Shown piece by piece: positions 34,758 through 52,283 of a stretch of DNA of 64,000 bases. The notes below the pieces were generated by a model. It searched no databases. It saw nothing but the letters and a program-made list of their open reading frames with translations, and was not told where the DNA came from. The translations under genes were made by a program, and so were the position numbers. How positions within the stretch are numbered: the stretch's first letter is position 1; every line of letters starts with the position of its first letter. Origin of the DNA: Sedimentisphaerales bacterium (lineage in GTDB: Bacteria; Planctomycetota; Phycisphaerae; Sedimentisphaerales; Anaerobacaceae). The stretch lies in assembly GCA_963708075.1 (NCBI GenBank), contig OY970194.1, positions 7,072,001 to 7,136,000 on the forward strand, given 5' to 3'.

Positions 34758-35725
34758 TAGTGTTGCTCTGGCTGGTCCTGGTAATCGCTCATGTCGTCTG
34801 CTCCGTCGGTGGGGCGGTGGCATTTGGCGGCTCTCATCCTGTTGCCGGTCCAAATGAATCGTTGGTCAGGGACTTGACCTTCTTTCTGAGCCGATTGCGG
34901 ACGCTGGACCACCTGCCCGAGTTGGAGCCGTCGCACACCGCCATGTCCAGCACTTGGGATCGCTCGGGTGGCAACTTTGATGGCTGGGATTTCAAACGTG
35001 TGGAAGACGGCCGAAACGTGTTGCTGGACGTGAACGGCCCCGGCTGCATCCACCGTATGTTCACCGGCTGGCTTGGCCAAGGCAAAGATATCCTGGGGCG
35101 ATCGGGTCCGGCCGGCACGCGACTGCAGATTCTCCTCGACCATGCCGAGCGCCCCGTTCTCGATCTGCCTGTGGAACGCTTCTTTGACGACCGCAACGGC
35201 CCGTTTCCATGCGACCTGGACCGAAGCTCTCGCAGCGCAGCCCGATAGGCCGCAATTCGGTCCGAAAGACATCCCGTGTCACATGGTGCTCGATCGCCAA
35301 GGTCCGGGCAAGTACGTCGGCGTCCTGCTGCACGTGCAGTGGCCCCATAAGGATTGGTGGGGCGAAGGGGACTGGCTGATCTGGACCGATGAGGACGGCT
35401 GGCCGCCAAGCTATCACGGCACGGGCAGCGAGGAGTACTTCAATTCCGGCTGGTGCAGCTTCGATCGCAAGGCGGTCTCGGGCTTCATCAAGACCCATCC
35501 GGGCGATGTGGCCCTGTACTCCTTTCACCTCAATGACGCCTTTCAGTTTCAGCATAATATCCGGGTGGCGGAAGAGACCTTCGGGATGGACGGGGCTGGC
35601 ATGATCGGCAATACTATCATTCATCGGGACCACCCGGTCTGGGGCAGCACGGCCTATTGGTACGCCCGGCCGCTTCAGTCGGCAGGCTCCAGTCCCAGGC
35701 AGATGACAAAGGAGAAAGGATCACC

Positions 35726-36937
35726 ATGAGTAGACTTCTGTCGTTCCGTCCGATCGTCCTGACGGCGGTGAGCTTATGTCTGACGCTCGGTGCGAGATCA
35801 GCCCTGGGCAACGAAAAGCCGGCCTCCGACGGTCGCATCGACGTGGCCACTATCTACTTCCCCGGTTATCATCGGGACATTCACTACGACGCCTGGTTCG
35901 GCGAGGGCTGGAACGAGTGGACGCTGCTTGCGGAGGCCCCCACGCGTTTCCCCGGCCAGCAATTCTTCAAGCCTCAGTGGGGCCCCTTTGACGAGGCCGA
36001 CCCGAAGTGGATGGAACGCCAGATCGCGCTGGCCGCCGATCACGGCATTACCGTCTTCATCTTCGATTGGTATTGGTATTCCGGCGTGAAGATCCTGCAT
36101 CGGCCGCTCGAAGAGGGCTTCCTGAAAGCCGACAACCGCGAGCGGCTCAAATACGCCCTCATGTGGGCCAATCACAATTGGGGCAACTATTTCCCCGTGC
36201 CGATCGACCGCCCGATGGACCGGCTTCTGCCCATCCGACACTCGGCCGCCGACTTCACGCGAGTGATGGACGAATGCATCAAGCTGCACTTTGGCCGGCC
36301 CAACTACTGGCGTGTGGGTGGCCGTCCCTATTTCTCGATCTTCGATCCGTGGGCCTTCATGCAGCAACTCGGTGGGCCGGAAAAGACGCGAGAGGTCTTG
36401 GACGCCGCACGCAAGCAGGTTGCGTCGGCCGGTCTGGGCCAGGTGCACTTCGCCGCATTCACCGGGGGCGCCGACGGCGTCCCGCAACTGCGCGAGGCAG
36501 GGTTTGACAGCACGACCTGCTACAACGTCACCGCCAGCGGCAAGGCCCGCTTGCCGCAGCAACCCCTGGATGACTATGCCGATCTGATGGCGCGACACGA
36601 GGCGTTCTGGAAGGAGATGGACGCAGGTATCCTGCCGCACGCGCCTACGGTGACGGTCGGCTGGGACCCGTCGCCGCGCTGGGTGAAGGACGCGCCATGG
36701 CCGCTTCCGGCGGACAAGGGCTACCCTTACAGCACGCTGGTAATCAACAACACGCCGGAACGCTTCGGTGAGCTATTCCAGAGGGCACTGAAACACGCCG
36801 AATCCGCCCGTCTGCGCCCGCCGGCCATCGTGATCAACGCATGGAACGAGTGGACCGAGGGCAGCGTGCTGCTGCCGGACGTGAAGTACGAGACGCGATT
36901 TCTGGAGGAGGTCAAGAACTCGCTCAGGCAGAAGTGA
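35726..36937 (+). CDS. GH99-like / WbsX-family glycoside hydrolase
   Basis: YFPGYH, EW, QIALAADHGI..F.FDWYW, LMWANH, GWDPSPR, INAWNEWTEG. Confidence 0.9.
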   Translation: MSRLLSFRPIVLTAVSLCLTLGARSALGNEKPASDGRIDVATIYFPGYHRDIHYDAWFGEGWNEWTLLAEAPTRFPGQQFFKPQWGPFDEADPKWMERQIALAADHGITVFIFDWYWYSGVKILHRPLEEGFLKADNRERLKYALMWANHNWGNYFPVPIDRPMDRLLPIRHSAADFTRVMDECIKLHFGRPNYWRVGGRPYFSIFDPWAFMQQLGGPEKTREVLDAARKQVASAGLGQVHFAAFTGGADGVPQLREAGFDSTTCYNVTASGKARLPQQPLDDYADLMARHEAFWKEMDAGILPHAPTVTVGWDPSPRWVKDAPWPLPADKGYPYSTLVINNTPERFGELFQRALKHAESARLRPPAIVINAWNEWTEGSVLLPDVKYETRFLEEVKNSLRQK

Positions 36938-36955
36938 GGAGTCAACCGAGCGGCC

Positions 36956-38932
36956 ATGAAGCACCACAAAACCACACGAATCATAGTTCCGCTGGTTCTC
37001 TTCTGTGCCGGCACCGTGAGCTGGGCTGCAGGGGAAGTCTCTGAGCCCATGCAACTCCGCCTGCCCGCCGAGGCGCCTGCCTCGGTGCGCGAGGTTCAGG
37101 ATCGCATCTACCGCGCTACGCAAAAGCAGGCGTGTTATCTGCTCGACGCCGTGCACCCGTGGAAAGATGATGCCGCGCTTCGCCTGCTGACGGACAGCAA
37201 AAGCGGCGAGCATTGGATTCGGCCCAACACCGGCGTGATTGAGGGCTTCGCCTTCCTGCATCGCTTCGGTCGGTACGACGAAAAGGTCGTGGGCGTCTCC
37301 CGGCCCGAACTCCTGGACGGCACAATTGTGCCAATGATACGCTACCTCGTCGCCACGCACGTCACCGGTTCGCGTCCGACAAGCGACGGCAAGAAGTGGG
37401 GCGATGCATGGCAGTCGGCACATTGGACGCAGATGCTGGGGCGAGGCGCATGGTTTGTATGGCCCCAGTTGCCTGTGGATCTGCGCGAGGGCGTCCGGCG
37501 AGTGGCGGCCCACGAGGCCGACCGCATCGCGCGCTCCGAGCCACCGCACCAGTTGCGCTCCGACACCAAGGCCGAGGAGAACGCCTGGAATAGCCAGGTG
37601 CTCTCTGTGGCGATACTCCTGCTGCCCGACGATCCTCGCTGCGCCGGCTGGGAAAAGGCGTACCAGAGATGGGTAATGTCGTCCTTCCTCCGCCCCGCGG
37701 ACAAACGCAATGAAGCCGTGGTAGACGGCCGGCCGGTGCGCGAGCAGTTCACCGGCGCGAACATTTTTGATGATTTTACGCTGGAGAACCACAACTTCGT
37801 CCACCCCGACTACATGACGACTTTCAGCTTGTCGCTGGGCTGTGCGCCGGATTTCGCGATGACCGGCCGCCGGATCCCCGAGGCGCTGCTGTTCAACGTG
37901 GCGCCCATCTACGAGAATTTGAAATGGATGCTCTTGCCCGACGGCGGTTTCGTGTATCCGAACGGGCAGGACTGGGAGCTGTTCCGCAATCCCTCCTGGC
38001 TTGGCAAGCACGTGCTGATGGCGGTGTGGGCGCTCGACCCGGATGCCTGGATGTGGGTGCTTCACACGCTGGACACGTTGGAAAAAATGCAGGCGCGCTC
38101 GACCGACGGAGCGGTCTTCCATCCAGGCGAGTATTTCTTTGCCTCGACCCAGTCGGACCTGCTCCGCTCGCTGGCCAACGCCTGGCTGTCGCTGCAACTG
38201 GCGGGAGAGGTCCCCAACGCGCCGCGCGAACGCATTGGGGTGCGTCGCTGGGACTCGGCCCAGGTGATTTTGCATCGCACACCCGACGCGATTCACACGG
38301 TGAGTTGGGGCGCCAAGGTCATGGCTCAGTGCGTGCCCAGCCGCCTGGATCGCGTGGTCTCGCCACACGAGCGCAACGGCATTGGCCACGTGCGCCTGGC
38401 TGGGGCGCGCGACGCTCTTGCCTTGCGAGTGCAGAACGCTGAGATCCGCGAAACGCCGGACGGATTCGATGCCTCCCTGACGGTGGACCATGGAAACGAG
38501 ATCCGGGCCCAGCTCCGCTTCCGCTCGGAACCCGACGGCTCGTTCTTGATGGCGGAGAAGCTCATCGCTCTTACGAACGTCTCTACCGCCGAAATTGCCA
38601 CCGGCCTCGTCGGCATCCTCAACAATCCGCATTGGATTTATGAGCACGCCCGCCGTCGCGTGACGGCCGATGACCAACTCATAGAAGTCGCATCATGCAG
38701 TAGGCAGCAGTGGCACTGGGAGGCCACCCGACGAATTGTCGTGGACGACGTGATCGTGGTTCAGTCCGATCGGCCGCTGCGGGCTTCCTATCTGGCGGCA
38801 GACCGCGCCGAGCGCGGACGGGTAACAGACCAATTGATCCTGAATCATCTGCCCGGCAACCGGAGTTGGACTACAGGCGAAACCCTCTCCGACTACCAGG
38901 TCGTCGTGCGCTGCGTGAAATCCAGACAGTGA
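36956..38932 (+). CDS. Secreted hypothetical protein, likely alpha/alpha-barrel carbohydrate-active enzyme
   Basis: Signal peptide; WQSAHW, DTKAEENAWN, ENHNFVHPDY, YPNGQDW; position in a glycan operon. Confidence 0.7.
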   Translation: MKHHKTTRIIVPLVLFCAGTVSWAAGEVSEPMQLRLPAEAPASVREVQDRIYRATQKQACYLLDAVHPWKDDAALRLLTDSKSGEHWIRPNTGVIEGFAFLHRFGRYDEKVVGVSRPELLDGTIVPMIRYLVATHVTGSRPTSDGKKWGDAWQSAHWTQMLGRGAWFVWPQLPVDLREGVRRVAAHEADRIARSEPPHQLRSDTKAEENAWNSQVLSVAILLLPDDPRCAGWEKAYQRWVMSSFLRPADKRNEAVVDGRPVREQFTGANIFDDFTLENHNFVHPDYMTTFSLSLGCAPDFAMTGRRIPEALLFNVAPIYENLKWMLLPDGGFVYPNGQDWELFRNPSWLGKHVLMAVWALDPDAWMWVLHTLDTLEKMQARSTDGAVFHPGEYFFASTQSDLLRSLANAWLSLQLAGEVPNAPRERIGVRRWDSAQVILHRTPDAIHTVSWGAKVMAQCVPSRLDRVVSPHERNGIGHVRLAGARDALALRVQNAEIRETPDGFDASLTVDHGNEIRAQLRFRSEPDGSFLMAEKLIALTNVSTAEIATGLVGILNNPHWIYEHARRRVTADDQLIEVASCSRQQWHWEATRRIVVDDVIVVQSDRPLRASYLAADRAERGRVTDQLILNHLPGNRSWTTGETLSDYQVVVRCVKSRQ

Positions 38933-38952
38933 AAACGATAGAGGAATCGAGT

Positions 38953-41496
38953 ATGGGCAGACAGGTGTTCCGTCCGGTCATCCTGGCGATGGTGAGCCTG
39001 TGTTTGGCGCTCTCTGTGAACTCGGCCCGAGGCGCTGTGCCGCCGCCTCCGCGGGACATTCAGGAGGTGCGGGCCGTGCTGGCCCAGGCGCCGCCGCCAC
39101 CGGCTGGCGAGCTGCGTCCGTTGAAGATTGTGCTGGCTGCAAACCGCAAAGATCACGGCCCGCACGAGCACGATTACCCGCGATGGATGGAGCGATGGAA
39201 AGTGCTCCTGGGCGGCAAGGAAGCAGGCACGGGACCGGTGAATCTGTATGGTCCGGCGGCCGATCTTTCGCAGGGCCCCCCGGCGGGCGCCGTGAATGTG
39301 AAGGTCGAGACCGCCAAGGACTGGCCGAGCGCAGAGCAATTCGCTCAAGCCGATCTCGTCGTTGTCTTCATAGGGACGGGTGGCTTTTGGAACGAGGCCA
39401 GATTGCGCGACGTGAAGGCCCTCCTGGATCGTGGCGGCGGATTCGTCGCCGTGCACTCGGCCATAATTGCCGAGCAGCCAACGGCCCGGCCGCTTGCCGA
39501 GTCGATTGGACTGGCCTGGGAGAGCGGCTATACTCTGTTCCGGCACGGGTCTATCGACCTGAAGGTCATTGCCCCCGAGCACCCGATCTGCAAGGGCCTG
39601 CCGCAGCAAATCCATTTTGAAGATGAGACGTACTGGCCGCTGGTGGGCGATGCCTCACGGATCGACCTACTGGCCACGGCCGACGAAAAGGCCAAGGACT
39701 CCGACCAGATGCGTCCCGAGCCAATGTTCTGGACCCTCACGGTCGGCAAGGGCCGAGTCTACAGTTGCGTCCTGGGGCACTACACCTGGACCTTTGACGA
39801 TCCCTATTTCCGCATCCTGCTCTTGCGCGGGATGGCCTGGGCGGCGGGCGAGTCCCCGTATCGCTTCGATCCGCTGGTGCTGTGCGGCGCCCGCACCTCG
39901 GAGCAGAAGCGCGCCGCCGCAGTGACGCTCCCCGACGCTGCGCCGGTCGCGCCGAATGCGAAGGACCCGAACCTGCTGTTGTGGCTGGATGCTTCGGACC
40001 GGGCGACGCTGACGGTCAACGATGACGGGCGCATCTCGGCGTGGTCGAATGTAGGGGCGAATAATCATTCGCCCTCACTGACCAGTTCCGCCGCGCAGCA
40101 GCCGCTTTATGTGGCCAAGGCGCTGGGCGGCAAAGCGGCCGCGCGATTCGATGGTGTTGACGATGTGCTCCGCGACACGACCTTTGGGCAATCGGCTCAG
40201 GCGTGGACGGTCGTGCTTGTTGTCACGCCGCGCTCGAACGCGGGGAACGGGCAGTTCCATGGGCTCCTGGCGACAAATCGGCCGGGGCAGAACGATTATG
40301 TGACTGGCCTGAACATCGACCTCGGTCCCGGCGAGACGCCGCAGTTTAGCGTACTCAACCTCGAAGGGCTCAAGGACTTGCCTGGCGCCACGAATCTCCG
40401 CACGGAGACGGCCCCGTTCGGCGAGGGCCAGATCATTATCTTGGGCACGGGCAATGGCCGCTCGCGGCTATGGATCAACGGAATTGAGGAAGAGGGCCGG
40501 GTGGCTAATGACGCTGTCACCGCGATGGACGAGCTTCGCCTCGGCGGGCGCTTCTACATGAATCAGGAACGCGGCTTCTTCCATGGTGACGTCTCGGAGG
40601 TCATGATCTACCAAACGTCGCTGACCGACCTCCAGCGTGCCGGCCTCTACGCATACCTGCTCCAGAAGTATGGCCCGGACATCAAGCCGCCGGCCGCTTA
40701 TACACTGGACGCCTGGGATTACCTGCCGGCTTATGATTGGGGCTCGACTCGTCGGCCCCTGGAGTCCATCGACGAGGCCGTTCGTTCTTCGCACAAAGAC
40801 GCGCGGGCCCGTACGACTCTCGAATCGCGGCTGATCGAAGTGCTGGCTGATCCATCTTCCACGCAGGCGGCCAAGGACTTTGTCTGCCGCCGTCTGGCGA
40901 TCATCGGCTCTGCGGCAAGCGTACCCGCTTTGGCCGAGCTTCTAAACGACGAGGCGCTCTCGAATATGGCCTGCTTCGCCCTGGAACGCATTCCCGATTC
41001 CGCGGTGGACGAGGCTCTGTGTCGGGCTCTGGACCGTGTGCCGGGCAAACTCCGAATCGGTGTGATCCATACGCTGGGCAATCGAAGCAGCCGGCTTGCA
41101 GTTGACCGTCTGGGCCGCCTGTTGGGTGATCAGGACGCAGCCACCCGCCAGGCGGCAGCCGGCGCCTTGGGCAAGATCAGCGATCCGGTAGCTATCGAGG
41201 CATTGACTGCGGCTTTGGACGCAGCGCCGACGGCTGGTCATCACTCCGCAGAGACGCAAAATCCGGCGTCTTTACAACTCGACGCTGCCACCCGGGCGGT
41301 TGTCGCGGATAGCTGTTTGAAATGTGCCGAGCAGTTGCATGCGGCGGGCAGGCGGGCCGAAGCCCTCACCATCTATGAAAAGCTCTGCAAGCAGGACGTG
41401 CCCCAGACCGTGCGGATCGCGGCCCTCCGAGGGGCAATTCTGCTGCGCGGGGCCGGTCGCGACGTCCCTGCTTCTCGAACAACGCACCAGCCATAA
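38953..41496 (+). CDS. ThuA-like + LamG-like + HEAT-repeat multidomain secreted protein
   Basis: KDHGPHEHDY, GGGFVAVH, DETYW, GRVYSCVLGH (ThuA); LWLDASD, RFDGVDD, FHGDVSEVMIY (LamG); HEAT repeats; C-terminus looks frameshifted or truncated. Confidence 0.85.
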   Translation: MGRQVFRPVILAMVSLCLALSVNSARGAVPPPPRDIQEVRAVLAQAPPPPAGELRPLKIVLAANRKDHGPHEHDYPRWMERWKVLLGGKEAGTGPVNLYGPAADLSQGPPAGAVNVKVETAKDWPSAEQFAQADLVVVFIGTGGFWNEARLRDVKALLDRGGGFVAVHSAIIAEQPTARPLAESIGLAWESGYTLFRHGSIDLKVIAPEHPICKGLPQQIHFEDETYWPLVGDASRIDLLATADEKAKDSDQMRPEPMFWTLTVGKGRVYSCVLGHYTWTFDDPYFRILLLRGMAWAAGESPYRFDPLVLCGARTSEQKRAAAVTLPDAAPVAPNAKDPNLLLWLDASDRATLTVNDDGRISAWSNVGANNHSPSLTSSAAQQPLYVAKALGGKAAARFDGVDDVLRDTTFGQSAQAWTVVLVVTPRSNAGNGQFHGLLATNRPGQNDYVTGLNIDLGPGETPQFSVLNLEGLKDLPGATNLRTETAPFGEGQIIILGTGNGRSRLWINGIEEEGRVANDAVTAMDELRLGGRFYMNQERGFFHGDVSEVMIYQTSLTDLQRAGLYAYLLQKYGPDIKPPAAYTLDAWDYLPAYDWGSTRRPLESIDEAVRSSHKDARARTTLESRLIEVLADPSSTQAAKDFVCRRLAIIGSAASVPALAELLNDEALSNMACFALERIPDSAVDEALCRALDRVPGKLRIGVIHTLGNRSSRLAVDRLGRLLGDQDAATRQAAAGALGKISDPVAIEALTAALDAAPTAGHHSAETQNPASLQLDAATRAVVADSCLKCAEQLHAAGRRAEALTIYEKLCKQDVPQTVRIAALRGAILLRGAGRDVPASRTTHQP
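40051..40078 (+). repeat. GTAG-type REP-like palindrome inside the coding sequence
   Basis: GTAGGGGCGAAT-aatc-ATTCGCCCtcac, translated as VGANNHSPS. Confidence 0.75.
41248..41275 (+). repeat. Degenerate GTAG-type REP-like palindrome inside the coding sequence
   Basis: gcagAGACGCaaaatccgGCGTCTttac, translated as AETQNPASL. Confidence 0.65.
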
Positions 41497-41552
41497 TTCG
41501 CGTCGGCAGGTGACGAGGTTTGCCTTGCCGATTAACACATTGGGAGTTGAGC

Positions 41553-42875
41553 ATGCCACACGAATACAAAACGAATCGGCGGCAGTTTGTCAAATGGGCC
41601 TGCGGAGCCGGGGCGGCTGTGACGCTTCCCTGCTGGGTGCCCGCGTGCGCCCTGGGGCTTGGCGCAAGCACCGCGCCCAGCAATCGCATCCGTATGGCGG
41701 CGATTGGACTGGGCTTCGGCTGGCAGATGTTCCTGCGCGATGACGTGCAGTACGTGGCCGTCTGCGACGTGCAGCAGCAGCGGCGCGAGGCGGCGAAGGC
41801 GTATGTAGAGGCTAAACAGGGCAGTGGGACTTGCACCGCGTACAATGACTTCCGCGAGGTCCTGGCCCGTGACGACGTGGACGCAGTCTACATCGCCACG
41901 CCCGACCACTGGCATGCGCTGGTCACAATTGCTGCCGCCCGGGCCGGCAAGCACGTCTATTGCCAGAAGCCGCTCACCCGGACCATCGCGGAAGGCCGGG
42001 CGGTGGTCGATGCCGTTCATCGCCACGGGATCGTCTTCCAGCATGGCACGCAGCAACGGTACGATGCTCGTATGCTCTTCGGCTGCGAGTTGGTGCTCAA
42101 CGGGTACATCGGCCAACTCAAGCATGTGCGGATCGGCAGTCCGGCCGGGATAACTTGCCCGCCGCAACCGCCGCAGCCCGTCCCCGCCGGACTGGACTGG
42201 GAGATGTGGCTGGGGCCTGCTCCCTGGGCCCCGTTCACGCCGCTGCGGATTCAGTCGCATCCCTGGTATCACATCTCCGATTACAGCATGGGCTACATCG
42301 CCGGCTGGGGTGTGCACCATGCTGATAGCGCAATGCAGGGCTCCGGACTGGATGAGTATGCGGGGCCGGTCGAGATCGAGGCCCGCGGCATCTTCCCCCC
42401 CGAGGGCCTGTTCGACAATCCGTACCGCTGGCAGATGCACTATACCTTCCCCGGCGGCCTGAAGTGGCACTGGACGGATTGCTTCGGTGACGGTTTTGGC
42501 TCCCGGTCGGGCCCCGATTGGCCGCAACATCGCATGGGTATCACATTCGAAGGTACCGATGGCTGGGTGTTCATCTGGCGCGACAAGGTGGATGCCTATC
42601 CCAAGAAGCTTCTTCGCGTTCGGATCGGCCCCAACGACAAAGTCCGTCTACAGGAGAACCTGCCGGGTGACTTCGTCGATTGCGTCCGGCGAGGAAGGCG
42701 GACCTGTGCCCCGGTCGAAATCGCCCATCGCTCGACGACCCTCTGTTCCATTGGCGCCATCGGCATGTTGCTGGGTCGCAAGCTGACCTGGGACCCGAGC
42801 CGCGAAGAGTTCGTCGGTGACGAGCAGGCCAACCGCCTTCGCGCCCGGCACATGCGCGGGCCCTGGGAGGTTTGA
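41553..42875 (+). CDS. Tat-exported Gfo/Idh/MocA oxidoreductase
   Basis: TNRRQFVK Tat motif; IATPDHWH, YCQKP, QHGTQQR, WLGPAP, WGVHHAD. Confidence 0.93.
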   Translation: MPHEYKTNRRQFVKWACGAGAAVTLPCWVPACALGLGASTAPSNRIRMAAIGLGFGWQMFLRDDVQYVAVCDVQQQRREAAKAYVEAKQGSGTCTAYNDFREVLARDDVDAVYIATPDHWHALVTIAAARAGKHVYCQKPLTRTIAEGRAVVDAVHRHGIVFQHGTQQRYDARMLFGCELVLNGYIGQLKHVRIGSPAGITCPPQPPQPVPAGLDWEMWLGPAPWAPFTPLRIQSHPWYHISDYSMGYIAGWGVHHADSAMQGSGLDEYAGPVEIEARGIFPPEGLFDNPYRWQMHYTFPGGLKWHWTDCFGDGFGSRSGPDWPQHRMGITFEGTDGWVFIWRDKVDAYPKKLLRVRIGPNDKVRLQENLPGDFVDCVRRGRRTCAPVEIAHRSTTLCSIGAIGMLLGRKLTWDPSREEFVGDEQANRLRARHMRGPWEV

Positions 42876-42965
42876 GGTCCACAGGACCATTTTCACAGTG
42901 ACTTGGCCGGAGGCTGTCGCCACTGCGAAGAGCAGGCTGGCAGTATTGGGCCTGAACGCCGGCCG

Positions 42966-45254
42966 TCATGGCAGCAGAGGTGCTGTTCCGGTGCCGCCGA
43001 GGGTAAGCTCTGCAACCGGCTCGTCGGGATCATTGCTGCCGATGGCCAGCTTCGCATATTCATAGCTTTGGGATGCGGCAGGCGTAAGACGCACAAGGAT
43101 TGTTCTGCCGGTCAAAGGAGAAACGGTGAAGGGAAGCGCCGGCGGTGACACGAGGCTATAGCCGGTCTTGTTCAGACCCACCAACTCAAGCGAGTGCACT
43201 TGCAGATCGGCAGTGCCGGTATTGTGGATGTCAAAGGCAAGGTCAGCATGAGAGCCGACGGCTGTCGGAGCAAACGCCAGGGCATCCGGGGCCAACTCAA
43301 TGTCGGGCTCCTGGGCAACGAACATGGCGGCGGGCAGCTCGAGCACCTGCCATTCGATGTGACTCTGCTGGCCGGGGAACTGGCGCTCAATGCGGAGGTT
43401 GTCGTCAGCCGTGAATTCCGCTGTCGAGAACGGCCGCGGGTAGAGGTCTCCGGTCCCGTTGCAGGTCTGGCCGTGGAAGAACATGGCTCTGCCGGTATCG
43501 ACAGGCTGTGCCAGGCGGCAGTCCGCGGACATCCAGCCGGCATCGTCGGAGAAATCGAGGCGGCCGTGCTGGGCCAACGCGGACGGACCAAAATCGACCA
43601 CGTGATACTCAATGTATCGCGTCCCGGTGGTCCCCGTGTACTGATAGAATTGGACGGTGTCCTTTGAGGCCAGGCGTCCGGCAACCGCCGAATAGGCCAG
43701 GCCGTTGACCGTCGACCGAGTCTGGTAGAGGAGAATGGAGGAATTGGGATTGACCGGCAGAATCTTGGCCGAGGCGGGCGCTGTCGCGGAGGCGCCGGTG
43801 AAATGCACGTTACCATGCTGGACGCCGGCAATTGCCGCCGGATCGAACTCGACGACGACCCAATTGTAATTGACCACGGAGTGTCCCGCGGCGGCCCTTT
43901 CTATGTGCACGGTTGTGGCCGAATTGACATAGGCGGTCAGGAGGGCCTCGTGGTAGTAGGTTCGAGCGGTGGAAGACGTGTCGGCGGTCACGAAGGCGAT
44001 GCATCGCGAAGGATCCACTCTGACCTCGGAGGCGGCGGCAGCGAGGACACGCCCTCCCGTTTGTGCTTGCGAGCCGCTCAGGGCGGCATCGACGGAACTC
44101 TGCTCATTGCCGAGCGATCCGCTGCCCCGATAAATCTGGAATTCCCGGCCGAGACACTCAATGACCTCCCAACTGACCCAGGTGGAATTCGCGGGCGAGG
44201 TTCGTTCGATTCTTATGGTGTCGGTATCCAGCAGGCGACCCCTGGCCATGACGACATTGGCATTCTCCTCTCCCGGCTGCCAACCGGTGCCGTAGCTGAA
44301 CAAGGCGAAGGCCCGGCCAGTATCGTTGACAGGCAGGACATCCACGTCGAAACGCGAGCCCTGAACTCTCGTTCGGCCGGATTGTACGCGATAGCCGGTA
44401 TGGTAGCCGGTCGGGCCATTCGTGGAGAAATCCACCGTGCCGTCGGTCCACTGGCCGCCGGCGGAGTTCCGGGCATAGAGTCGATAATAGTACTTCGTGG
44501 CGGCGTCCAGGTCCGTGAGGTCCAGGTAGAGGACCCCGGCCGCCTGCGGTCCAAGCTCTGTGAGATAGTCCCATCTCCTTGGGTCCGTACCGCCGTCATT
44601 CTCGCCCCAGTAGATGTGGACATTAGGGTCCTCGCCCCCTGTGTCAAGGATCTCGCCGCGGAGCCGGGCGGAGTTGCCTGTGACATACATTGCCGGCTTG
44701 TTGGTGATTTGGGGCCGCACTGTGGGTGTGAACGTGTAGTCGAGCGTGACGTTCAGGAATCCGCCCTGTGATGGGTAGAATTGTGACCTTGGATTGCCGT
44801 CTTTCACGAAGACGAATGTCGCCCGGTTGAACTGATTCTTCGTAGCGTTGTGATTCGTCAATTCGAACCGTATGTAATATGTGCCATCCGGCACTTGGAC
44901 GCCGCTACGGTCAGTCAGGTCCCATGTGATGGTGTGCTGTTGGTATGCCTTTGGCGTGGCGCCGGTGAAGCCGTCGAGGTTCGTTCCGTCGGCAGCGTTC
45001 CACTGCGTCAGATGACGATGCTCGATGACTCCCCATCGTCCGATCGTTTTGACGAAAGCGCCGGCGGCATTCTCGACCCAGACGGCCTGCACGTGCTGTG
45101 GTTCGAAGTTGAGCTCGCCTTTGGGCGAGGTCGTAGTGAACGTCACCACCAGTTTCCAGCCCGCGTAGAGGGGGGCCGCGCCGAGGCTGTGCCAGCCGAG
45201 CCACAGGATCGCTGCCCAGGCGAAGATGCTCTTCAGGGAATCACGTCGTCTCAC
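42966..45254 (-). CDS. Secreted DUF2271-domain protein with FN3-like domain, four ~90-aa beta repeats and a C-terminal ASH/choice-of-anchor-D-like Ig domain
   Basis: RRRDSLK leader; AVWVENAAGAFVKTI...DGFTGAT...WDLTD.SG..VPDGTY.I.FE (DUF2271 pattern); L.DL...TKYYYRLYARN; I.NTG.A.L.V...L.I.SNDPDEP. Confidence 0.8.
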   Translation of the reverse strand: MRRRDSLKSIFAWAAILWLGWHSLGAAPLYAGWKLVVTFTTTSPKGELNFEPQHVQAVWVENAAGAFVKTIGRWGVIEHRHLTQWNAADGTNLDGFTGATPKAYQQHTITWDLTDRSGVQVPDGTYYIRFELTNHNATKNQFNRATFVFVKDGNPRSQFYPSQGGFLNVTLDYTFTPTVRPQITNKPAMYVTGNSARLRGEILDTGGEDPNVHIYWGENDGGTDPRRWDYLTELGPQAAGVLYLDLTDLDAATKYYYRLYARNSAGGQWTDGTVDFSTNGPTGYHTGYRVQSGRTRVQGSRFDVDVLPVNDTGRAFALFSYGTGWQPGEENANVVMARGRLLDTDTIRIERTSPANSTWVSWEVIECLGREFQIYRGSGSLGNEQSSVDAALSGSQAQTGGRVLAAAASEVRVDPSRCIAFVTADTSSTARTYYHEALLTAYVNSATTVHIERAAAGHSVVNYNWVVVEFDPAAIAGVQHGNVHFTGASATAPASAKILPVNPNSSILLYQTRSTVNGLAYSAVAGRLASKDTVQFYQYTGTTGTRYIEYHVVDFGPSALAQHGRLDFSDDAGWMSADCRLAQPVDTGRAMFFHGQTCNGTGDLYPRPFSTAEFTADDNLRIERQFPGQQSHIEWQVLELPAAMFVAQEPDIELAPDALAFAPTAVGSHADLAFDIHNTGTADLQVHSLELVGLNKTGYSLVSPPALPFTVSPLTGRTILVRLTPAASQSYEYAKLAIGSNDPDEPVAELTLGGTGTAPLLP

Positions 45255-45780
45255 GGTTCAACTCCAGTTGTCTGTCATAAGAGGAGAAATCCTGAGGTGT
45301 CGCGCCATCGGCGGCCCTGTGCATCAGTTGGTCAGCCATCGCGCACGCAGTCCGGGTCACCTGTCCGAGAACAGCGCCAACTGCGGGCGAAAGCTGCATG
45401 CCATAGTCGATGACGGCCGGCTCGACGCCGAGTATCAGTACCCGTGGTCTCGATTTCGTAGGCAGCAACCGCAGGGCTGCTGCGATCCCCAGTTCGTGCA
45501 GCGAGACATGCTTAGGGACTTCGGCGTCGTTGACGTCGAAGCAATAGATCGACCCGGGCGAGCCGCCGGCAGCTACCGCGTCGATGGCCACGACCACGTC
45601 GACACTCTCGAACAACTCCAGCGCGTCGAGCAGGGCGGTGCCGACCTCCGCGAGGACGATGCCTTCGGGAGCCTGCCCGCTCAGCATCCGGATCGCGTGT
45701 ACGCCGACGCCGTCATCCATGAGCAGGACGTTCCCCAATCCCACGATTGCCGCACGAGCACGTTCCTGCCGCCGAACCAT
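45241..45780 (-). CDS. Hydrogenase maturation protease (HybD/HyaD family)
   Basis: IVGLGNVLLMDDGVGVH, IDAV, SLHELG, LGVEP; TGATG coupling to the large subunit. Confidence 0.95.
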   Translation of the reverse strand: MVRRQERARAAIVGLGNVLLMDDGVGVHAIRMLSGQAPEGIVLAEVGTALLDALELFESVDVVVAIDAVAAGGSPGSIYCFDVNDAEVPKHVSLHELGIAAALRLLPTKSRPRVLILGVEPAVIDYGMQLSPAVGAVLGQVTRTACAMADQLMHRAADGATPQDFSSYDRQLELNRETT

Positions 45781-47219
45781 CACAAGCCACCCAGTTTCAG
45801 TACGTTGCTCTTGTGCTTCGGCTTCACCACGTGTGCCGCACAATCCAGGCACGGATCGAACGAGTGAATCACTCTCATCACCTCGATAGGCTGGTCGACA
45901 TTCTGCACCGGCGTGCCGAGTAGAGCCTCTTCCAGCGGGCCAAGGATACCCCTGTTGTCACGCGGGGATGCATTCCACGTCGTGGGACTGATCACCTGAT
46001 AATGCGAAATCCTGCCGTCGGAGATTCCGAGCCAGTGTCCCAGCGCCCTTCGCGGCGCTTCCGTCAAACCCATGCTCGCAGCCGCGTCCGGCACCGTCGG
46101 CGGCTGATAGACAGGACCTTCCGGAATGAGTTCGTCGAGCCACTCGCGTGCGGCCATCGCGATTTTCATCGCCTCTCTCGCCCGAGCCAGATGGCGGTCC
46201 ATGACCGAGATCCCGTTGCGATAGTCGCCATTGATCCACATGCGAGCGAGAGGTCCCACCTCATACGGCCTGCCCTCATAGCGCGGGGCCTTAAGCCAGG
46301 AATAAGCGTACGTCTTGGACGCCGGATCGACTGCCTTCGTTTGACCTGAAGCGGGATGGAGGCCGTCGGTGTTGTTTTTGAACCATGAATGCGTCACGTG
46401 CTCCGCAATGGAAGCGGCGTCAAGCGGCAGGGGAGTTGCAGAGCCCTCCACAACGTGGCCGCCGGCGAGCAGTTGATCGCCCCCGGCGTCATCCAGTTCA
46501 AATACGCCATACGCCAGGAGATTCCCATACCCGCGTCCCAAGCCGAGGTAGTCGCTGTATTGCGAGGCGAGCTGCTCGGCGTCCGGTATATACCGGTCCT
46601 GGATAAAGCCAATCAGCTCATTCAGGTAGGCCCTGTAATTCGCGATGCGCTCCGGCCGGGGATTGGCTGTGAACCCGCCGGCGATATAGGCCGGAGGATG
46701 GGGCAGGCGGCCGCCGAACAGGGCCCCCATCTCGTGACCTTTGCGCCGCATCTCAAGGGCCTTGAGATAGCCGGCCATGAGAGTGTCGGAAGCCTTCTGA
46801 TCGAAGCGTCTGTCCACGTTCCACTCCGCCTGCCAGGGAGGCATGGCGGGTCCCGCGATGAAGTCGGGCAGCGCCAGAAGGTAGAAATGCAGGATGTGGG
46901 ACTCGATGAAATTGGCGGCATTCACCAGGTTGCGCATGATCCGCGCATTCGCCGGCACGGCGACGCCGCAGGCCGCGTCGAGGGCTTTGACCGCCGCCAT
47001 GCCGTGCGCCACGGGACAAACACCGCAAATCCGCTGGGTGATATGCTGCGCATCTCTCGGGTCGCGGCCGACGAGAATATTCTCGATACCGCGGAACATG
47101 ACGCCGCCGGCCTGGACGTTGACCACCTGCTGAATGCCGTTGACGGTATCAAACTCGACCTCGACCAGCAGGTGACCCTCCACGCGGGTCACCGGGTCAA
47201 AAGAGGCTGTCACTTTCAT
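45780..47219 (-). CDS. [NiFe]-hydrogenase large subunit, group 1 (1a-like)
   Basis: DPVTRVEGH, L1 QRICGVCPVAH, SHILHFY, YSWLKAPRY, L2 SFDPCLDCAAH plus a 16-aa cleavable tail. Confidence 0.96.
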   Translation of the reverse strand: MKVTASFDPVTRVEGHLLVEVEFDTVNGIQQVVNVQAGGVMFRGIENILVGRDPRDAQHITQRICGVCPVAHGMAAVKALDAACGVAVPANARIMRNLVNAANFIESHILHFYLLALPDFIAGPAMPPWQAEWNVDRRFDQKASDTLMAGYLKALEMRRKGHEMGALFGGRLPHPPAYIAGGFTANPRPERIANYRAYLNELIGFIQDRYIPDAEQLASQYSDYLGLGRGYGNLLAYGVFELDDAGGDQLLAGGHVVEGSATPLPLDAASIAEHVTHSWFKNNTDGLHPASGQTKAVDPASKTYAYSWLKAPRYEGRPYEVGPLARMWINGDYRNGISVMDRHLARAREAMKIAMAAREWLDELIPEGPVYQPPTVPDAAASMGLTEAPRRALGHWLGISDGRISHYQVISPTTWNASPRDNRGILGPLEEALLGTPVQNVDQPIEVMRVIHSFDPCLDCAAHVVKPKHKSNVLKLGGL

Positions 47220-47232
47220 CGTTGCCGGATCC

Positions 47233-48123
47233 TTAAGTGTAGAAGTTTCCGCCGGGGAAGTCGGGTTCGGTACATCCCAGGCATACGCTGTTGGCGTCCA
47301 CACACCAGTTCACGCCGTTGTTCCATCTGCGCTTCCAGCAGTCGCTGAAGGCTGTTTTGCCGCGACAGCCGAGATCGAGCACGCAGCAGTTGTCCTGTCC
47401 GAAACTTGTTGCCATAGTGCTGTTCAGGCGTGGGCAGTTGTCGTGCAGCTTGGCGCCATAGAGGGCGACGGGACGGTCATATGCGTCCAGCTCGATCTTG
47501 TTGCCCAGAATCAGTTGCACGACCGCCCAGGTAATCCAGTCCGGGTGGGCCGGGCACCCCGGGATGTTGATGACGCTCTTTCCTGTGGCCTCTTTGACGC
47601 TGATGATATCCGTCGGATTCGAGCCGGAACGGGGAATGCCTCCGAATGAGGCGCAGGTACCGACGCACAGGATCGCCGCGGCATCCGCGGCCAGATCGAG
47701 AACGGCCTGCTGATACGTGACTCGCTGGCCGTCATAGGTCCACACTTGGCAGGCGCGTCCACCGAACGCCCTGGCGACGCCGCCCTCGAGTGCAAGGACA
47801 TATCCGCCACGCGCCTGGGCCTCGTTGAGCATCGTGACCGCCGTCTCGCCGGCGGAGGACATCACGACGGTGTGATAGGCGAGATTGATCGAGTGGACCA
47901 GAATATCGTCTGCCGTGGTTTGGCCGGCGTCCGCGGCCGCGTCGATGCGGTTCAGAAAGGAGATCGAGTCCCCCTGACATCCGCTGCCATGCAGCCACAG
48001 GACGGTGGGAGCCGCCTTGCCCGTCAGTGCGGCCTCCAGGCGTCCGAGTAGCAGGGGGGTAAGGTTGATCGCTCCGGCACAAGCGGCACAGTGTCTAAGA
48101 AAGGTTCGGCGAGTGAGATGCAT
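47233..48123 (-). CDS. [NiFe]-hydrogenase small subunit, Tat-exported
   Basis: TRRTFL Tat motif; CQGD, GTCASFGG, PGCPAHP, HDNCPR, C..LGCRG, C...WN, WC.....CLGC; no C-terminal TM helix. Confidence 0.95.
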   Translation of the reverse strand: MHLTRRTFLRHCAACAGAINLTPLLLGRLEAALTGKAAPTVLWLHGSGCQGDSISFLNRIDAAADAGQTTADDILVHSINLAYHTVVMSSAGETAVTMLNEAQARGGYVLALEGGVARAFGGRACQVWTYDGQRVTYQQAVLDLAADAAAILCVGTCASFGGIPRSGSNPTDIISVKEATGKSVINIPGCPAHPDWITWAVVQLILGNKIELDAYDRPVALYGAKLHDNCPRLNSTMATSFGQDNCCVLDLGCRGKTAFSDCWKRRWNNGVNWCVDANSVCLGCTEPDFPGGNFYT

Positions 48124-48186
48124 CACCTGGCTCCAACTCCACTGGGTGGAATGAAAACATATCAGCCCGGACACTACATGACTATT

Positions 48187-48215
48187 CTTATACCAAATCG
48201 ACCCCGGAGTGTCAA
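48187..48215 (-). promoter_or_regulatory. Near-consensus sigma70 promoter of the hydrogenase operon
   Basis: Minus strand TTGACA, 17-nt spacer ending TGG, TATAAG; ~65 nt upstream of the small-subunit ATG. Confidence 0.7.
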
Positions 48216-48618
48216 TCGCACTCGCGACGAATCTCCGTGAATCCCCCGTGAATTCAGGGGAATTATGGCATTCGCCATCGGCAATAGCGGTATTGCGACA
48301 TCCAGTATAAAATGATTTGGATTCGAGAGTTGAAGGGGACCTATGGACAGATTTCCCGGAAACTCAAAGGGGATTGGACATCTTGCCGGACGGGATGCCG
48401 GGAGATAAAATGGTGTCTGTTCGCAACTATGTATACAGGATGAATTTCGAAGGAGAATCGGCATGAGGCGTGCCATACACAGGATCGCGGACCGGCTGCT
48501 GCGCATCCGCAGAGGCAGCCTTGCCTTGATCGCATCGGCCGCCGTGGTTTTACTTTGCCTGACGCTGTAAAGAGCATTCACCGCAAGAACAGGATACTGG
48601 AACACGAGAGGAGCACAC

Positions 48619-50152
48619 ATGATGGGTATGATCAGAACCTTCCTTCGGGGCGCCGCATTCGTTGGTATTTGTGCACTTTGCTGGAGTGCGTCGGTTCAGG
48701 CTCAGCCGGCGGCGAGCGAGACGCAGGTAGTTCCTGCGCCCGGGCAAGTGCCGCCATTGCCGCCACGACTGCCCGATGGAATCCCGGCATTCCCGGGGGC
48801 CTGGGGCGGCGGCATGTTTACCACCGGCGGCCGCGGCGGCAGGGTGATCGAGGTGACTAATCTGAACGACGGTGGTCCGGGCAGCCTGCGGGCGGCCACC
48901 CAGGAACAGGGTCCTCGTATCGTTGTTTTCCGCGTCGCCGGCATCATCCAACTGCAGTCGAACATCGACATTGACAATCCCAATATCACTATCGCGGGTC
49001 AGTCCGCGCCGGGCGACGGCATTTGTCTGGCTAACCAGTCACTGAACATCAACACGCGCAACGTCATCCTTCGTCATCTGCGCGTGCGGCGCGGCCGGCC
49101 CGAGGGAGGCCAGGGATCGGACAACATCGGTGGCAATCCCCAGGAGCAGATCATCGTCGACCATTGCAGCACCAGTTGGGGCATGGATGAGAACCTCTCG
49201 CTCTATCGCTATATGAAACCGCTGCCCGGCGGAGGTACCGTGAAACTGCCGGTCCAAAACCTGACCGTCCAGTGGTGCATTTCGAGCGAGGCGCTCAACG
49301 CCGGCAATCACGCTTTCGGCGGCACCTGGGGCGGGCGGGACTCCACGTTCCACCACAATCTCTTCGCCTGCAACACGGGACGCAATCCCTCCATCGGCAT
49401 GTCCGGCGAGTTCGACTACCGCAACAACGTGATCTTCAACTGGCGTCACCGCACCATGGACGGCGGCGATGAGAACCTCGCTGTTGAACGTGATCAACAA
49501 CTACTATAAGCCAGGTCCGGCAGTGAACGAGAACATGCGGAGCACGATCGCCCGGATCGAGGAACGCAACATGTATTCTCCCGGCCGGCAGTGGGAAGCC
49601 GGCAACTGGTACCCCAAGACGGCCGGTCGCGCCGGCAAGTGGTACGTCGCGGGCAACATCGTCGAGGGGTTCCCCGATGTCACCGCCGACAACTGGAAAG
49701 GTATGCAGGGTCCTGAGGAGATCGCCCGCGTCAACACTCCGTTCGAGGGCTGGCCGGTCAAGCAGGAAACCGCGACGGAGGCCTTCAACTCTGTGCTGAC
49801 CAGGGCCGGTGCGACTCTTCCCCGCCGCGACGCCGTCGATGTGCGCGTCACCGAAATGGTTCGTACCGGCAGGGTGACGGTCGGAAACGGTATCGTGAAC
49901 GATCCGAGAGAAGTGGGGGGCTATCCCGATTACTCCTTCTCGCCGGATGATGTACCGATCGATACCGACCACGACGGCATGCCCGACGAGTGGGAGAAGA
50001 AACACGAGCTGAATCCCGCCGACGCGTCGGACAGCAGCATCGACTCAGACCAGGACGGCTACACCAATGTTGAAGAGTATCTCAACAGGACCAATCCACA
50101 TGAGAAGATCGACTACAGGAACCTGGGAAACAACGTTGATACGATGAGTTGA
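48619..50152 (+). CDS. Pectate lyase (PL1-like), secreted; one-base frameshift near 49475
   Basis: PAFPGA.GGG..TTGGRGG.V..VTNLND.GPGSLR, IAGQSAPGDG, IVDHCSTSW..DE, RNP; continues in another frame as TSLLNVINNYYKPG; C-terminal DTDHDGMPD/DSDQDGYTN.EEY. Confidence 0.9.
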
Positions 50153-50200
50153 GGCGCAGGCCCTTGCGACTTGTGTCAGCCCGCATCCTCACCAGCGGCA

Positions 50201-50237
50201 AAGAAAAAGGGCCTGTACCCACGAGGAGTACAGGCCC
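50201..50237 (-). terminator. Rho-independent terminator of the 50266-51831 gene
   Basis: Stem GGGCCTGTAC (50209-50218) / GTACAGGCCC (50228-50237); A-tract on the left reads as a U-tract on the minus strand. Confidence 0.85.
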
Positions 50238-50265
50238 GAGATTACCTTTACATTTAGCCTCGCAT

Positions 50266-51831
50266 CTACTTGGTGCCGGGCAGTTCCGCCGGCGCGATCA
50301 GGTAGGCTACCGCGTTGATGAAGATCTTCTGACCTTCGGCGCTGAGGTTCATGACACCCCAATTGGTCTTCTGGCCCGAAACCTCCTGGGTACCGGCACC
50401 GAAGAACATGCGTGTGTCAACCGGGGTCTGGGTAGAAGTCCCATAGAACGGCTTGCCCGCGGGCCACTCGGCGATCAGCATGTTGCCATTGTCGGGCCGG
50501 ACAGCCAGAACCTTACCGTTGCCGGCGTCGGCCGTGTTGATGAAGCTTGCATACCCGCTGGCTGCATTCGGATCGAACCACCGAACCACATCGTTGGCGT
50601 CGAGTGCCACGCCCTCGAAAAGCGGATGATTCGGATCAATGGCCTTGAGGTCGTAGTAGGTCTTGCGAGCGTCCTGACTGGTGCTGTTGATCCACTTCCA
50701 CCGGTTGCTGGCGGCGATATACGAGCTCATCAGCATGACGGGGCTCTTCACGTTGTCCCATGCGGCGAGTTCCGCGGCGTCCGTAGCCATCCCGGCGCTG
50801 TTGCAGCCGCGAGCAAGGATGACCAGGTCGGCCGCATCGAGAACCGCCAGCTTGTTCGGATCGAGGGTCTCCCAGTAGCTGACCCAGCCGGTCCCGACGA
50901 GGGACCCCGGCATGTAGTCCACGTCATAGCCTGCTGCCGTGAGCAGATCCACAAAGCCCTGATCGCTCGGCACGTTAGCGTCTGTCGTCGAGGGGTACAT
51001 CGCCGAGACGAAGACAATGCTCTTGCCCTTGTTGACCATGAAATTGACGGCGTTCACGAACATTTTTTCGCCGTCTGCGGTCAGATTGTACATGCCGTCA
51101 GGAGCATAGTTCGGAGCGGTGTTCTTGCTGCCCGTACCGGCGACGAATAGCATACGGGGACCACCGGCAGTGAAGATGCCGGCTTCAAAGAATTTCTGCC
51201 CGGCTTCCCACGTCACAATGGAAACCAGACCGTCGCTGGCACGCGTGGCCAGTACCTTGCCATTGCCGGCATCCGTGACATCCTTGACCCAGTCCACGTT
51301 CCACTGAGCGCTCAGAGCCTCAACACAGCCATTGGGGTCGATGGTTACGCCAGCAAACACGGCATGCGCAGGATCAACCACCTTGAGCTTGGGCTCTTTG
51401 GCCAGCACCGTTCCGGTGCCGTTCAGCCATCCCCACTTGCCGCCGATGCGTGACATGTGTGCGCTCAGACTGATAAGAGGGGTGCTCACGGCGTTCCACA
51501 GGTTCGGCTCATTGTCGGCCGCCGTGGAGTAGGAACCGCTATCCGCGTTGCGGCTCAAGATGATCAGGTCCGCCGCTTCCAGTTCCGCGATCTTGTTGGG
51601 ATCCAGGGTGCGCCAGTACTGCTGGCCGTCAATGTACTCGTTTTGATTCTTGTAGATCACGTTGTGTCCCTGCACGGTCAGCAGGCCCACCCAGCCCTGG
51701 TCTCCGGGTGTGTTCGGCTCAACGGAGCCGTAGCCCTTGTTGTCCGAAACCCAGATAATATTGGCGGCCTGTACCACCGAGCCCAAGGCCAGAACCGAAA
51801 CCAGTGACAATAACACGAGTTCTCTACGCAT
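50266..51831 (-). CDS. Secreted protein made of two tandem ~245-aa homologous domains
   Basis: Signal peptide; duplicated DQG.V.LLT..G, YW.TLDPNK.A.L.AADL.IL.R, DAGNGKVLA.R, NL.A.G.K.F.NAV; GGAGG RBS. Confidence 0.85.
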   Translation of the reverse strand: MRRELVLLSLVSVLALGSVVQAANIIWVSDNKGYGSVEPNTPGDQGWVGLLTVQGHNVIYKNQNEYIDGQQYWRTLDPNKIAELEAADLIILSRNADSGSYSTAADNEPNLWNAVSTPLISLSAHMSRIGGKWGWLNGTGTVLAKEPKLKVVDPAHAVFAGVTIDPNGCVEALSAQWNVDWVKDVTDAGNGKVLATRASDGLVSIVTWEAGQKFFEAGIFTAGGPRMLFVAGTGSKNTAPNYAPDGMYNLTADGEKMFVNAVNFMVNKGKSIVFVSAMYPSTTDANVPSDQGFVDLLTAAGYDVDYMPGSLVGTGWVSYWETLDPNKLAVLDAADLVILARGCNSAGMATDAAELAAWDNVKSPVMLMSSYIAASNRWKWINSTSQDARKTYYDLKAIDPNHPLFEGVALDANDVVRWFDPNAASGYASFINTADAGNGKVLAVRPDNGNMLIAEWPAGKPFYGTSTQTPVDTRMFFGAGTQEVSGQKTNWGVMNLSAEGQKIFINAVAYLIAPAELPGTK

Positions 51832-52148
51832 GACTGACCTCCTTCCAAACAGGTGAAAACACTTTTGCTCTGAGGTTGTATCAGAGATCGCCCTCGTTCA
51901 GATCCGAGCGCAACCTCCTCCCTTCTTGATAGACCCAATATGAACGAGTCTACCAGCATGTACAACAAATGATAATAGTGGTGCCACAACAATCCATTAT
52001 CATTATAGACAGTATGGTTCCGCGGGACAACCCAGTATTGCGTTTTTCTCTCGCCATTTTGCGAACACGGCCGGTAAATGAACGATATCATGGCCGTCAT
52101 CGGTGTCACTTTAAGTGGCAATTCAATGCTGTTTCATCGGAAATCCTG

Positions 52149-52178
52149 TTGCACAGGAGGGCGTCAACGTGATATACT
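52149..52178 (+). promoter_or_regulatory. Putative sigma70 promoter
   Basis: TTGCAC, 18-nt spacer ending TGA, TATACT. Confidence 0.55.
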
Positions 52179-52283
52179 TGAATCGGTGCCACACATCCCG
52201 AGGTTAGTCTGCGCTGTGGCGGCCTCAAAACCGCCATGAGTTGCTATCGGTCACTTGATACTCTGCTGCTATGGAGGTTGGTC

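Follow-up and report, generated by a model that had tools for sequence, protein, structure and literature searches.

The locus under study is a minus-strand cassette at positions 42966-48215 of a 64,000-nucleotide (nt) stretch of contig OY970194.1 from a Sedimentisphaerales bacterium; this whole stretch is referred to as the window. The reading of open reading frames (ORFs) in the window placed four genes consecutively on the minus strand. The cassette comprises a [NiFe] hydrogenase small subunit of 296 amino acids (aa; 47233..48123, best start ATG at 48123), a [NiFe] hydrogenase large subunit of 479 aa (45780..47219, from the ATG at 47219 to a TGA stop at 45782-45780), a hydrogenase maturation endopeptidase of 179 aa (45241..45780, ATG at 45780 and stop at 45243-45241), and a predicted secreted, multi-domain partner of 762 aa that carries a DUF2271 domain (42966..45254, GTG start at 45254 and a stop ending at 42966). 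The small-subunit stop is separated from the large-subunit ATG by 13 nt, the protease ATG and the large-subunit stop overlap by one base (TGATG at 45780), and the GTG of the 762-aa gene sits inside the protease gene with a 14-nt overlap. The original prediction, made from the DNA letters, had described a hydrogenase operon of four overlapping or near-abutting genes on this strand, and the gaps of 13, -1, and -14 nt agree with it. The downstream neighbour (41520-42875) is convergent and the upstream neighbour (48619-49509) is divergent, so the cassette consists of exactly four genes.

The hydrogenase and its DUF2271 neighbour

The small subunit starts with MHLTRRTFLRH, a twin-arginine (Tat)-type motif, and matched the Pfam families Oxidored_q6 and NiFe_hyd_SSU_C as well as TIGR00391 hydA (185.8 bits; cut-off 179.5). 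Its best solved match was the Desulfovibrio vulgaris [NiFeSe] small subunit (2wpn_A, 193.9 bits), which aligned end to end. The two C-termini are level, and 2wpn_A is anchor-less; hence, the small subunit lacks a C-terminal transmembrane anchor, as had been predicted. The large subunit matched Pfam NiFeSe_Hases with 396.9 bits. Against solved structures, it scored 398-408 bits with the [NiFeSe] enzymes of group 1a and at most 303 bits with the other groups, including the standard [NiFe] enzymes. By this similarity, solved group 1a enzymes are the closest to the large subunit, and we refer to the hydrogenase as group 1a-like. A [NiFeSe] (HysAB) identity was nevertheless rejected, because the C-terminal motif of the large subunit, DPCLDCAAH, has a cysteine and not a selenocysteine, and all [NiFeSe] NCBIfam models scored under their cut-offs (NF033181, 559.8 against 600; NF045518, 503.7 against 780; NF045520, 245.9 against 470).

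The small subunit deviates from its relatives at the second position of the proximal-cluster CxxC, where they have Cys and the window protein has Asp52 (GCQGD; 47968..47970, minus strand). The GCQGD motif was found in 10 of the 10 small subunits read from the lineage linked to the partner gene, and Cys (C[ST]GC) in all five unlinked relatives; 2wpn_A carries GCTGC at this site. Asp52 is thus predicted to occupy a ligand position of the proximal [4Fe4S] cluster in the linked lineage.

The maturation endopeptidase matched Pfam HycI (53.3 bits) and TIGR00072 (103.2 bits, cut-off 47.45). Its predicted substrate is the C-terminal extension of the large subunit, 16 residues with the sequence VVKPKHKSNVLKLGGL (45783..45830, minus strand).

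In the fourth protein, the DUF2271 claim was checked with hidden Markov models. PF10029 matched the 762-aa product at residues 57-134 with 37.0 bits and the domain alone with 40.7 bits, both above the Pfam cut-off of 27.3, and this protein is the sole PF10029 match in the genome. The predicted ApbE flavinylation motif, suggested by its conservation and by the DUF2271 literature, is D94-G-F-T97-G98-A99-T100-P101 (44952..44975, minus strand), and the T-G-A-T codons were found exactly at 44955-44966, where they had been placed. In an alignment of 20 orthologues, D94, G95, T97, G98, T100, and P101 were invariant, and A99 was kept in at least 90% of the sequences, with one A99T. By analogy with NqrC and ApbE, the last residue of the motif, Thr100, is the predicted attachment site of flavin mononucleotide (FMN).

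A domain search against 1.84 billion representative proteins returned 1376 relatives at E <= 0.001. Among the best 148 of these, 116 contain [ST]GA[ST], and 97 have it in the form D..[ST]GA[ST], with the location equivalent in nearly every case; PF10029 also matched 64 of the 66 aligned domain relatives. Folding the domain with these 66 relatives gave a confident beta sandwich (predicted local distance difference test, pLDDT, 92.3; predicted template modelling score, pTM, 0.86). The sequence search found no solved structure of the DUF2271 domain, and Foldseek with the domain model returned nothing at E <= 0.001, only C2/FlgD-like sandwiches. According to Méheust et al. 2021 (PMC8238504), a DUF2271 protein is flavinylated at this motif by its ApbE, and a Thr-to-Ala exchange abolishes the modification. 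We regard the flavinylation site in the DUF2271 domain as well supported and infer flavinylation itself. A second TGAS, at residue 486 of the 762-aa protein, is not conserved and was dismissed as a site.

The remainder of the 762-aa protein is modular. Residues 1-~30 (45165..45254) read as a Sec-type signal peptide, with a basic start, a hydrophobic core, and LGAAPLYAG, and residues 4-24 form a helix in the structure model; the protein thus looks like one secreted by a Sec signal. A Tat signal was rejected because the RR pair is not conserved among the orthologues. The DUF2271 beta sandwich (residues ~31-176, 44727..45164) is followed by an FN3-like beta-sandwich spacer (residues ~178-280, 44415..44723), which is visible in the model strands (pLDDT ~80-90) and reached only a sub-threshold 15 bits with Pfam fn3 (cut-off 25). 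Next comes a four-repeat beta module of no known family (residues ~283-643, 43326..44408) with conserved Cys367, Cys418, and Cys598. The repeats are weakly similar to one another, with hhalign probabilities of 85% for R1-R4, 70% for R2-R3, and 52% for R2-R4. The protein closes with an immunoglobulin (Ig)-like choice-of-anchor D domain (residues ~643-757, 42984..43328), matched by NF012200 at residues 643-745 with 45.3 bits against a cut-off of 45. No sorting signal follows this domain, as the protein ends five residues past it.

The original prediction had described a stalk of FN3, beta repeats, and an Ig anchor on a surface protein. Of this stalk, the beta repeats were seen, the FN3-like sandwich is below threshold, and the Ig-like end is barely above its cut-off; the C-terminus without a sorting signal establishes neither "surface" nor "anchor". 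The model of the whole protein is all-beta with a mean pLDDT of 68, and Foldseek with it returned generic multi-Ig proteins only (template modelling score ~0.1). With the repeat module, the ESM Atlas gave unnamed phage clusters at 0.84-0.88, which are leads only. The same module (residues 286-643) recurs with 51% identity, and with two conserved Cys, as the C-terminal module of 1640-aa Phycisphaerae proteins with Peptidase_M64 and FN3 domains (L081, 6095-11026; L099, 6140-11047), and no hydrogenase lies within 10 kb of these two genes. The repeat module is, judged by this recurrence, a mobile one.

The original prediction had also placed one promoter before the operon. A promoter-like match (48187..48215, minus strand) is visible by eye 64 nt upstream of the small-subunit ATG, with TTGACA at 48215-48210, a 17-nt spacer, and TATAAG at 48192-48187. 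The consensus scan, which demands T at position 6 of the -10 hexamer, did not list it, so the single promoter is a candidate only. The promoter and terminator scan yielded no more than expected from shuffled sequence, none of its internal terminators was convincing, and Rfam gave zero matches in 42800-48800. Between the operon and the divergent gene lies a 495-nt non-coding stretch (48124-48618), likewise without an Rfam match; a 148-aa ORF at 48174-48620 looks spurious.

Distribution of the cassette and supporting genes

A word-indexed search found 26 orthologues of the 762-aa protein at 55-86% identity, 20 of which formed the motif alignment described above. Among species-representative genomes, the small- and large-subunit genes lay directly upstream of the partner gene in all four Planctomycetota loci (L078, L079, L080, and L082), and four metagenome contigs (L091-L094) showed the same arrangement. 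We compared 24 genomes of the genus to which the window genome belongs, this genome and 23 others. A partner homologue was present in seven of the 23, four of them being the genomes of the L078-L082 loci, and in each case a large-subunit gene lies next to it, the product being 61-78% identical. Partner and hydrogenase lineage are both missing from the other 16; thus, presence and absence agree in 24 of 24 genomes. The synteny expected from the original prediction is borne out, as this hydrogenase lineage adjoins a DUF2271 gene in all seven other genus genomes and in the four metagenome contigs.

In three genomes of the genus (G407, G419, and G421), the partner has diverged to 32-34% identity and is only 565 aa long, without the repeat module. 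It keeps the DUF2271 domain (28.3 bits), the motif as V-D-A-R-T-G-A-T-P, and an Ig-like end (HYDIN/VesB Ig-like, 37.6 bits), and its gene overlaps the protease gene by 4 nt. In the large-subunit tree, the 11 linked sequences form one clade with a Shimodaira-Hasegawa-like approximate likelihood ratio (SH-aLRT) support of 99, and the inner eight have a support of 100/99. The flanks of the cassette vary by locus and include sulfatases, esterases, glycoside hydrolases, a secretin, and RNase Y. Judged by gene content, these comparisons show the hydrogenase lineage and the DUF2271 gene to have been gained, kept, and lost together, and a functional link between them, not a chance neighbourhood, appears well supported.

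The protease gene is less constant. In seven protease-less loci (L078, L079, L080, L082, L092, L093, and L094), the large subunit stops exactly at DPCLDCAVH, and in the five protease-bearing loci (the window, L091, and L110-L112) it has an extension of 15-16 residues. Extension and endopeptidase have evidently been lost together. Decayed cassettes were found on three contigs (L095, 5442-7644; L096, identical to L095; and L097, 3038-5188). Upstream of the partner, these retain only a frameshifted N-terminus of the small subunit (residues 1-82) or a C-terminal remnant of the protease. Their partner keeps TGAT and ends with ...ELPAT[FL]VAQ before the choice-of-anchor D domain, through a stop codon or a deletion.

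The window genome (7.5 Mb, one contig, completeness 92.8%) was searched for the genes that flavinylation and maturation would call for. It carries two apbE genes, the first at 198413-199456 with a hydrophobic N-terminal membrane or signal segment, and apbE was also present in the four genomes of orthologue-bearing relatives that were checked. HypD is encoded elsewhere in the genome. Of the genes that the original prediction proposed to look for elsewhere in the genome, apbE and hypD are thus present. An FMN_bind gene, for an RnfG-like FMN protein, lies 5 kb from the first apbE, and this neighbourhood looks like an rnf cluster. Another FMN_bind domain (43.9 bits) in a 1290-aa open frame (genome 4364991-4365218) is a second extracytosolic flavin candidate. 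Around the nearest non-orthologous relatives of the domain in the phylum, apbE was nearby in five of eight loci, directly beside the domain gene in L073, L076, and L077 and ~4-5 kb away in L071 and L074, which ties this DUF2271 subfamily to ApbE.

A PepSY-like transmembrane protein is the usual companion of DUF2271, and no PepSY_TM (PF03929) match was found in the genome at E <= 0.01. The predicted absence of a cytochrome gene from the operon also held, as none of the 13 ORFs read in 35657-54893 has a CxxCH motif or belongs to a cytochrome family. Genome matches to PF02085 (cytochrome c3) were weak, at most 23.9 bits, and lie in multihaem proteins of 483 and 706 aa more than 6 Mb away. The cytochrome-less operon proves little alone, because the cytochrome c3 that serves a group 1a hydrogenase is normally encoded at another locus.

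The genome holds three further large-subunit loci. One of them (L069, genome 1946900-1951300) encodes a paralogous exported hydrogenase whose large subunit is 53% identical; its protease match is in two pieces, possibly through a frameshift, and it is followed downstream by a PQQ_2 beta-propeller protein, a Laminin_G_3 protein, and a GH9 enzyme. Its surroundings contain no flavinylation motif. In the closest unlinked relatives (58% identity; L064, 12084-13493, in G055), the small-subunit gene is immediately preceded, in the same orientation, by a gene for a di-haem DHOR-family cytochrome. This cytochrome may act as a haem partner for enzymes that lack the flavin partner. The ORFs downstream of unlinked hydrogenases were partly wrong-frame artefacts of high G+C and were set aside.

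The genes around the cassette (30698-57411) are typical of polysaccharide-degrading Planctomycetota: DUF2961, WbsX, ThuA/HEAT, and F5/8 type C proteins, a Gfo/Idh/MocA protein with a Tat-like start, an apiosidase-like enzyme, and a DUF1559 protein with an N-terminal methylation motif. None of these neighbours is conserved beside the cassette in relatives.

Proposed electron path and competing explanations

We incline to the view that this operon encodes a Tat-exported, anchor-less [NiFe] hydrogenase whose electron partner is the predicted FMN-bearing DUF2271 protein, in place of a cytochrome. The hydrogenase would be matured by Hyp proteins and the protease of the operon and then exported by Tat in the folded state. 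The partner would be exported by Sec and, once in the periplasm, would receive its FMN on Thr100 from the membrane-anchored ApbE (198413-199456). H2 would be oxidised at the [NiFe] site, and the electrons would pass through three iron-sulfur clusters to the distal cluster and from there to FMN. The modules behind the flavin head, namely the FN3-like spacer, the repeats, and the Ig-like domain, would keep it in place or position it within the cell envelope. The flavinylation systems described so far supply their extracytosolic flavin through a transmembrane module; in this case, a periplasmic hydrogenase may feed it directly from H2. The reduced flavin might pass its electrons on to iron, to some other acceptor outside the cytosol, or to those flavins of Rnf that face the periplasm.

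A flavoprotein as the electron partner is in keeping with the tight packing of the cassette, with the gain and loss of the genes together, with the invariance of the motif, and with an operon that has neither a membrane nor a haem component, and direct feeding from H2 fits a cassette without a membrane component in a genome without a PepSY-type protein. The fuller version of the proposal is that of haem-free H2 use, in which a periplasmic [NiFe] hydrogenase with an Asp at its proximal cluster would reduce a flavinylated DUF2271 head on a secreted stalk, H2 replacing the transmembrane module that otherwise supplies the electrons. We hold this fuller version tentatively, with doubt slightly outweighing belief.

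Several observations weigh against these proposals. Group 1a enzymes are normally served by a distant cytochrome c3, and the genome has multihaem proteins. A purely periplasmic path from H2 to flavin conserves no energy alone, and the onward acceptors are candidates only. No apbE was found in the examined flanks of the hydrogenase-linked loci (L078-L101 and L110-L112). The presence of the repeat module on secreted peptidases means that most of the 762-aa protein is not specific to hydrogenases. What is left of the partner in the decayed contigs (650 aa) still reads as an open frame that includes the motif, so the partner may work without this hydrogenase. As for the pairing itself, no full-length orthologue of the 762-aa protein was found in a sample of 400 genomes of the phylum, no partner-like gene lies near the nearest unlinked hydrogenases (at most 58% identity), and the domain relatives across the phylum adjoin no hydrogenase in eight of eight loci. 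Every linked locus found belongs to one hydrogenase clade and one genus; the association may thus have arisen once, and its retention may partly reflect shared ancestry.

In one alternative, the 762-aa protein is a structural tether or scaffold that keeps the soluble hydrogenase in place, within the large periplasm of planctomycetes or at a surface, the electrons leave through an unlinked cytochrome c, and any flavin serves another reaction. The protein does consist mostly of beta-sandwich modules as in surface or adhesin-like proteins, it has its repeats in common with secreted peptidases, an unlinked cytochrome c3 is the classical arrangement of group 1a, and this genome encodes multihaem cytochromes. 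However, it is the repeat module that proved dispensable, whereas what both variants of the partner retain is the motif-bearing DUF2271 domain together with the Ig-like terminus. Motif residues that are invariant among orthologues would be superfluous in a pure scaffold, and the matches of the cytochrome c3 type are weak and distant. We consider a tether improbable, although of the alternatives it is the one to be taken most seriously. A little less probable still, in our judgement, are independent neighbours, that is, an extracytosolic DUF2271 flavoprotein with some other task, such as the iron reduction proposed for DUF2271 systems of the PepSY type, which travels with the hydrogenase on one inherited or transferred cassette. 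The confinement to one clade of one genus, the phylum relatives with apbE nearby and no hydrogenase, and the partner frame that outlives the hydrogenase in three contigs speak for this reading. Yet start and stop codons overlap or abut (by 4 nt in L112), and the link outlasted the loss of the protease gene and a divergence of the partner to ~33% while every flanking gene changed. Nor would independent neighbours readily agree in presence and absence across the 24 genus genomes, and the genome has no PepSY_TM module to feed the flavin instead.

The direction of electron flow is unreadable from sequence, which leaves room for an H2-evolving or redox-balancing role, with the flavoprotein gathering extracytosolic electrons and the hydrogenase venting H2, or for a flavoprotein that guards the enzyme from O2. 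The Cys-to-Asp change at the proximal cluster recalls the O2-insensitive group 1h enzyme of Cupriavidus necator, whose proximal [4Fe4S] cluster is bound by three Cys and one Asp (PMC11023054); this likeness suggests altered redox tuning. The closest characterised enzymes are periplasmic uptake hydrogenases, however, and a flavin at about -200 mV would be poorly suited to reducing protons at neutral pH except where H2 is kept very low. We therefore rate the reverse or protective role as quite unlikely, the least probable of the three.

Significance and relation to known systems

To our knowledge, every characterised periplasmic uptake hydrogenase has a cytochrome or a b-type membrane subunit as its electron acceptor, and we know of no described ApbE-flavinylated system that draws its electrons other than through a membrane module. 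If our proposal is true, the direct coupling of a hydrogenase to a flavinylated protein would stand as a third design beside these two. Polysaccharide-degrading Planctomycetota would then have an H2-driven reductant in their cell envelope, and hydrogenase biochemistry would gain a small testable pair, made up of a soluble heterodimer and a flavin domain of 150 residues. The lineage-specific replacement of Cys by Asp at the proximal cluster would offer a further way to study how redox tuning or O2 tolerance is set in an enzyme similar to those of group 1a. A full-text literature search found no account of a pairing between a hydrogenase and a flavinylated or DUF2271 protein. The word "hydrogenase" is absent from the main text of PMC8238504 and PMC11334425, although the large supplementary table of PMC8238504 may still hold such neighbours.

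Among the closest known systems is HysAB, the periplasmic group 1a enzyme of D. vulgaris that works with type I cytochrome c3 (PDB 2wpn and 5jsu). It has in common with the window enzyme a Tat-exported, anchor-less small subunit, the closest large subunit (408 bits), a dedicated endopeptidase, and an operon without a membrane subunit. The window enzyme differs in having Cys in place of selenocysteine (DPCLDC) and Asp in place of Cys in the proximal CxxC, and its conserved neighbour is a predicted flavinylation substrate of the DUF2271 family, not a cytochrome. The DUF2271 substrates of PepSY-like clusters (PMC8238504) share PF10029 and the [S/T]GA[S/T] motif after an Asp; they are extracytosolic, as the window protein would be by its Sec-like N-terminus. 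In the window, however, the domain stands at the head of a 762-aa protein with several other modules, the gene conserved beside it encodes a hydrogenase, and the cluster has no apbE, DUF4198, or PepSY-like gene. The actinobacterial-type group 1h hydrogenase of C. necator (PDB 5aa5) also has an Asp at a ligand position of the proximal cluster, which may or may not correspond to that of Asp52, and it belongs to a distant group, matching the window small subunit with 94.9 bits.

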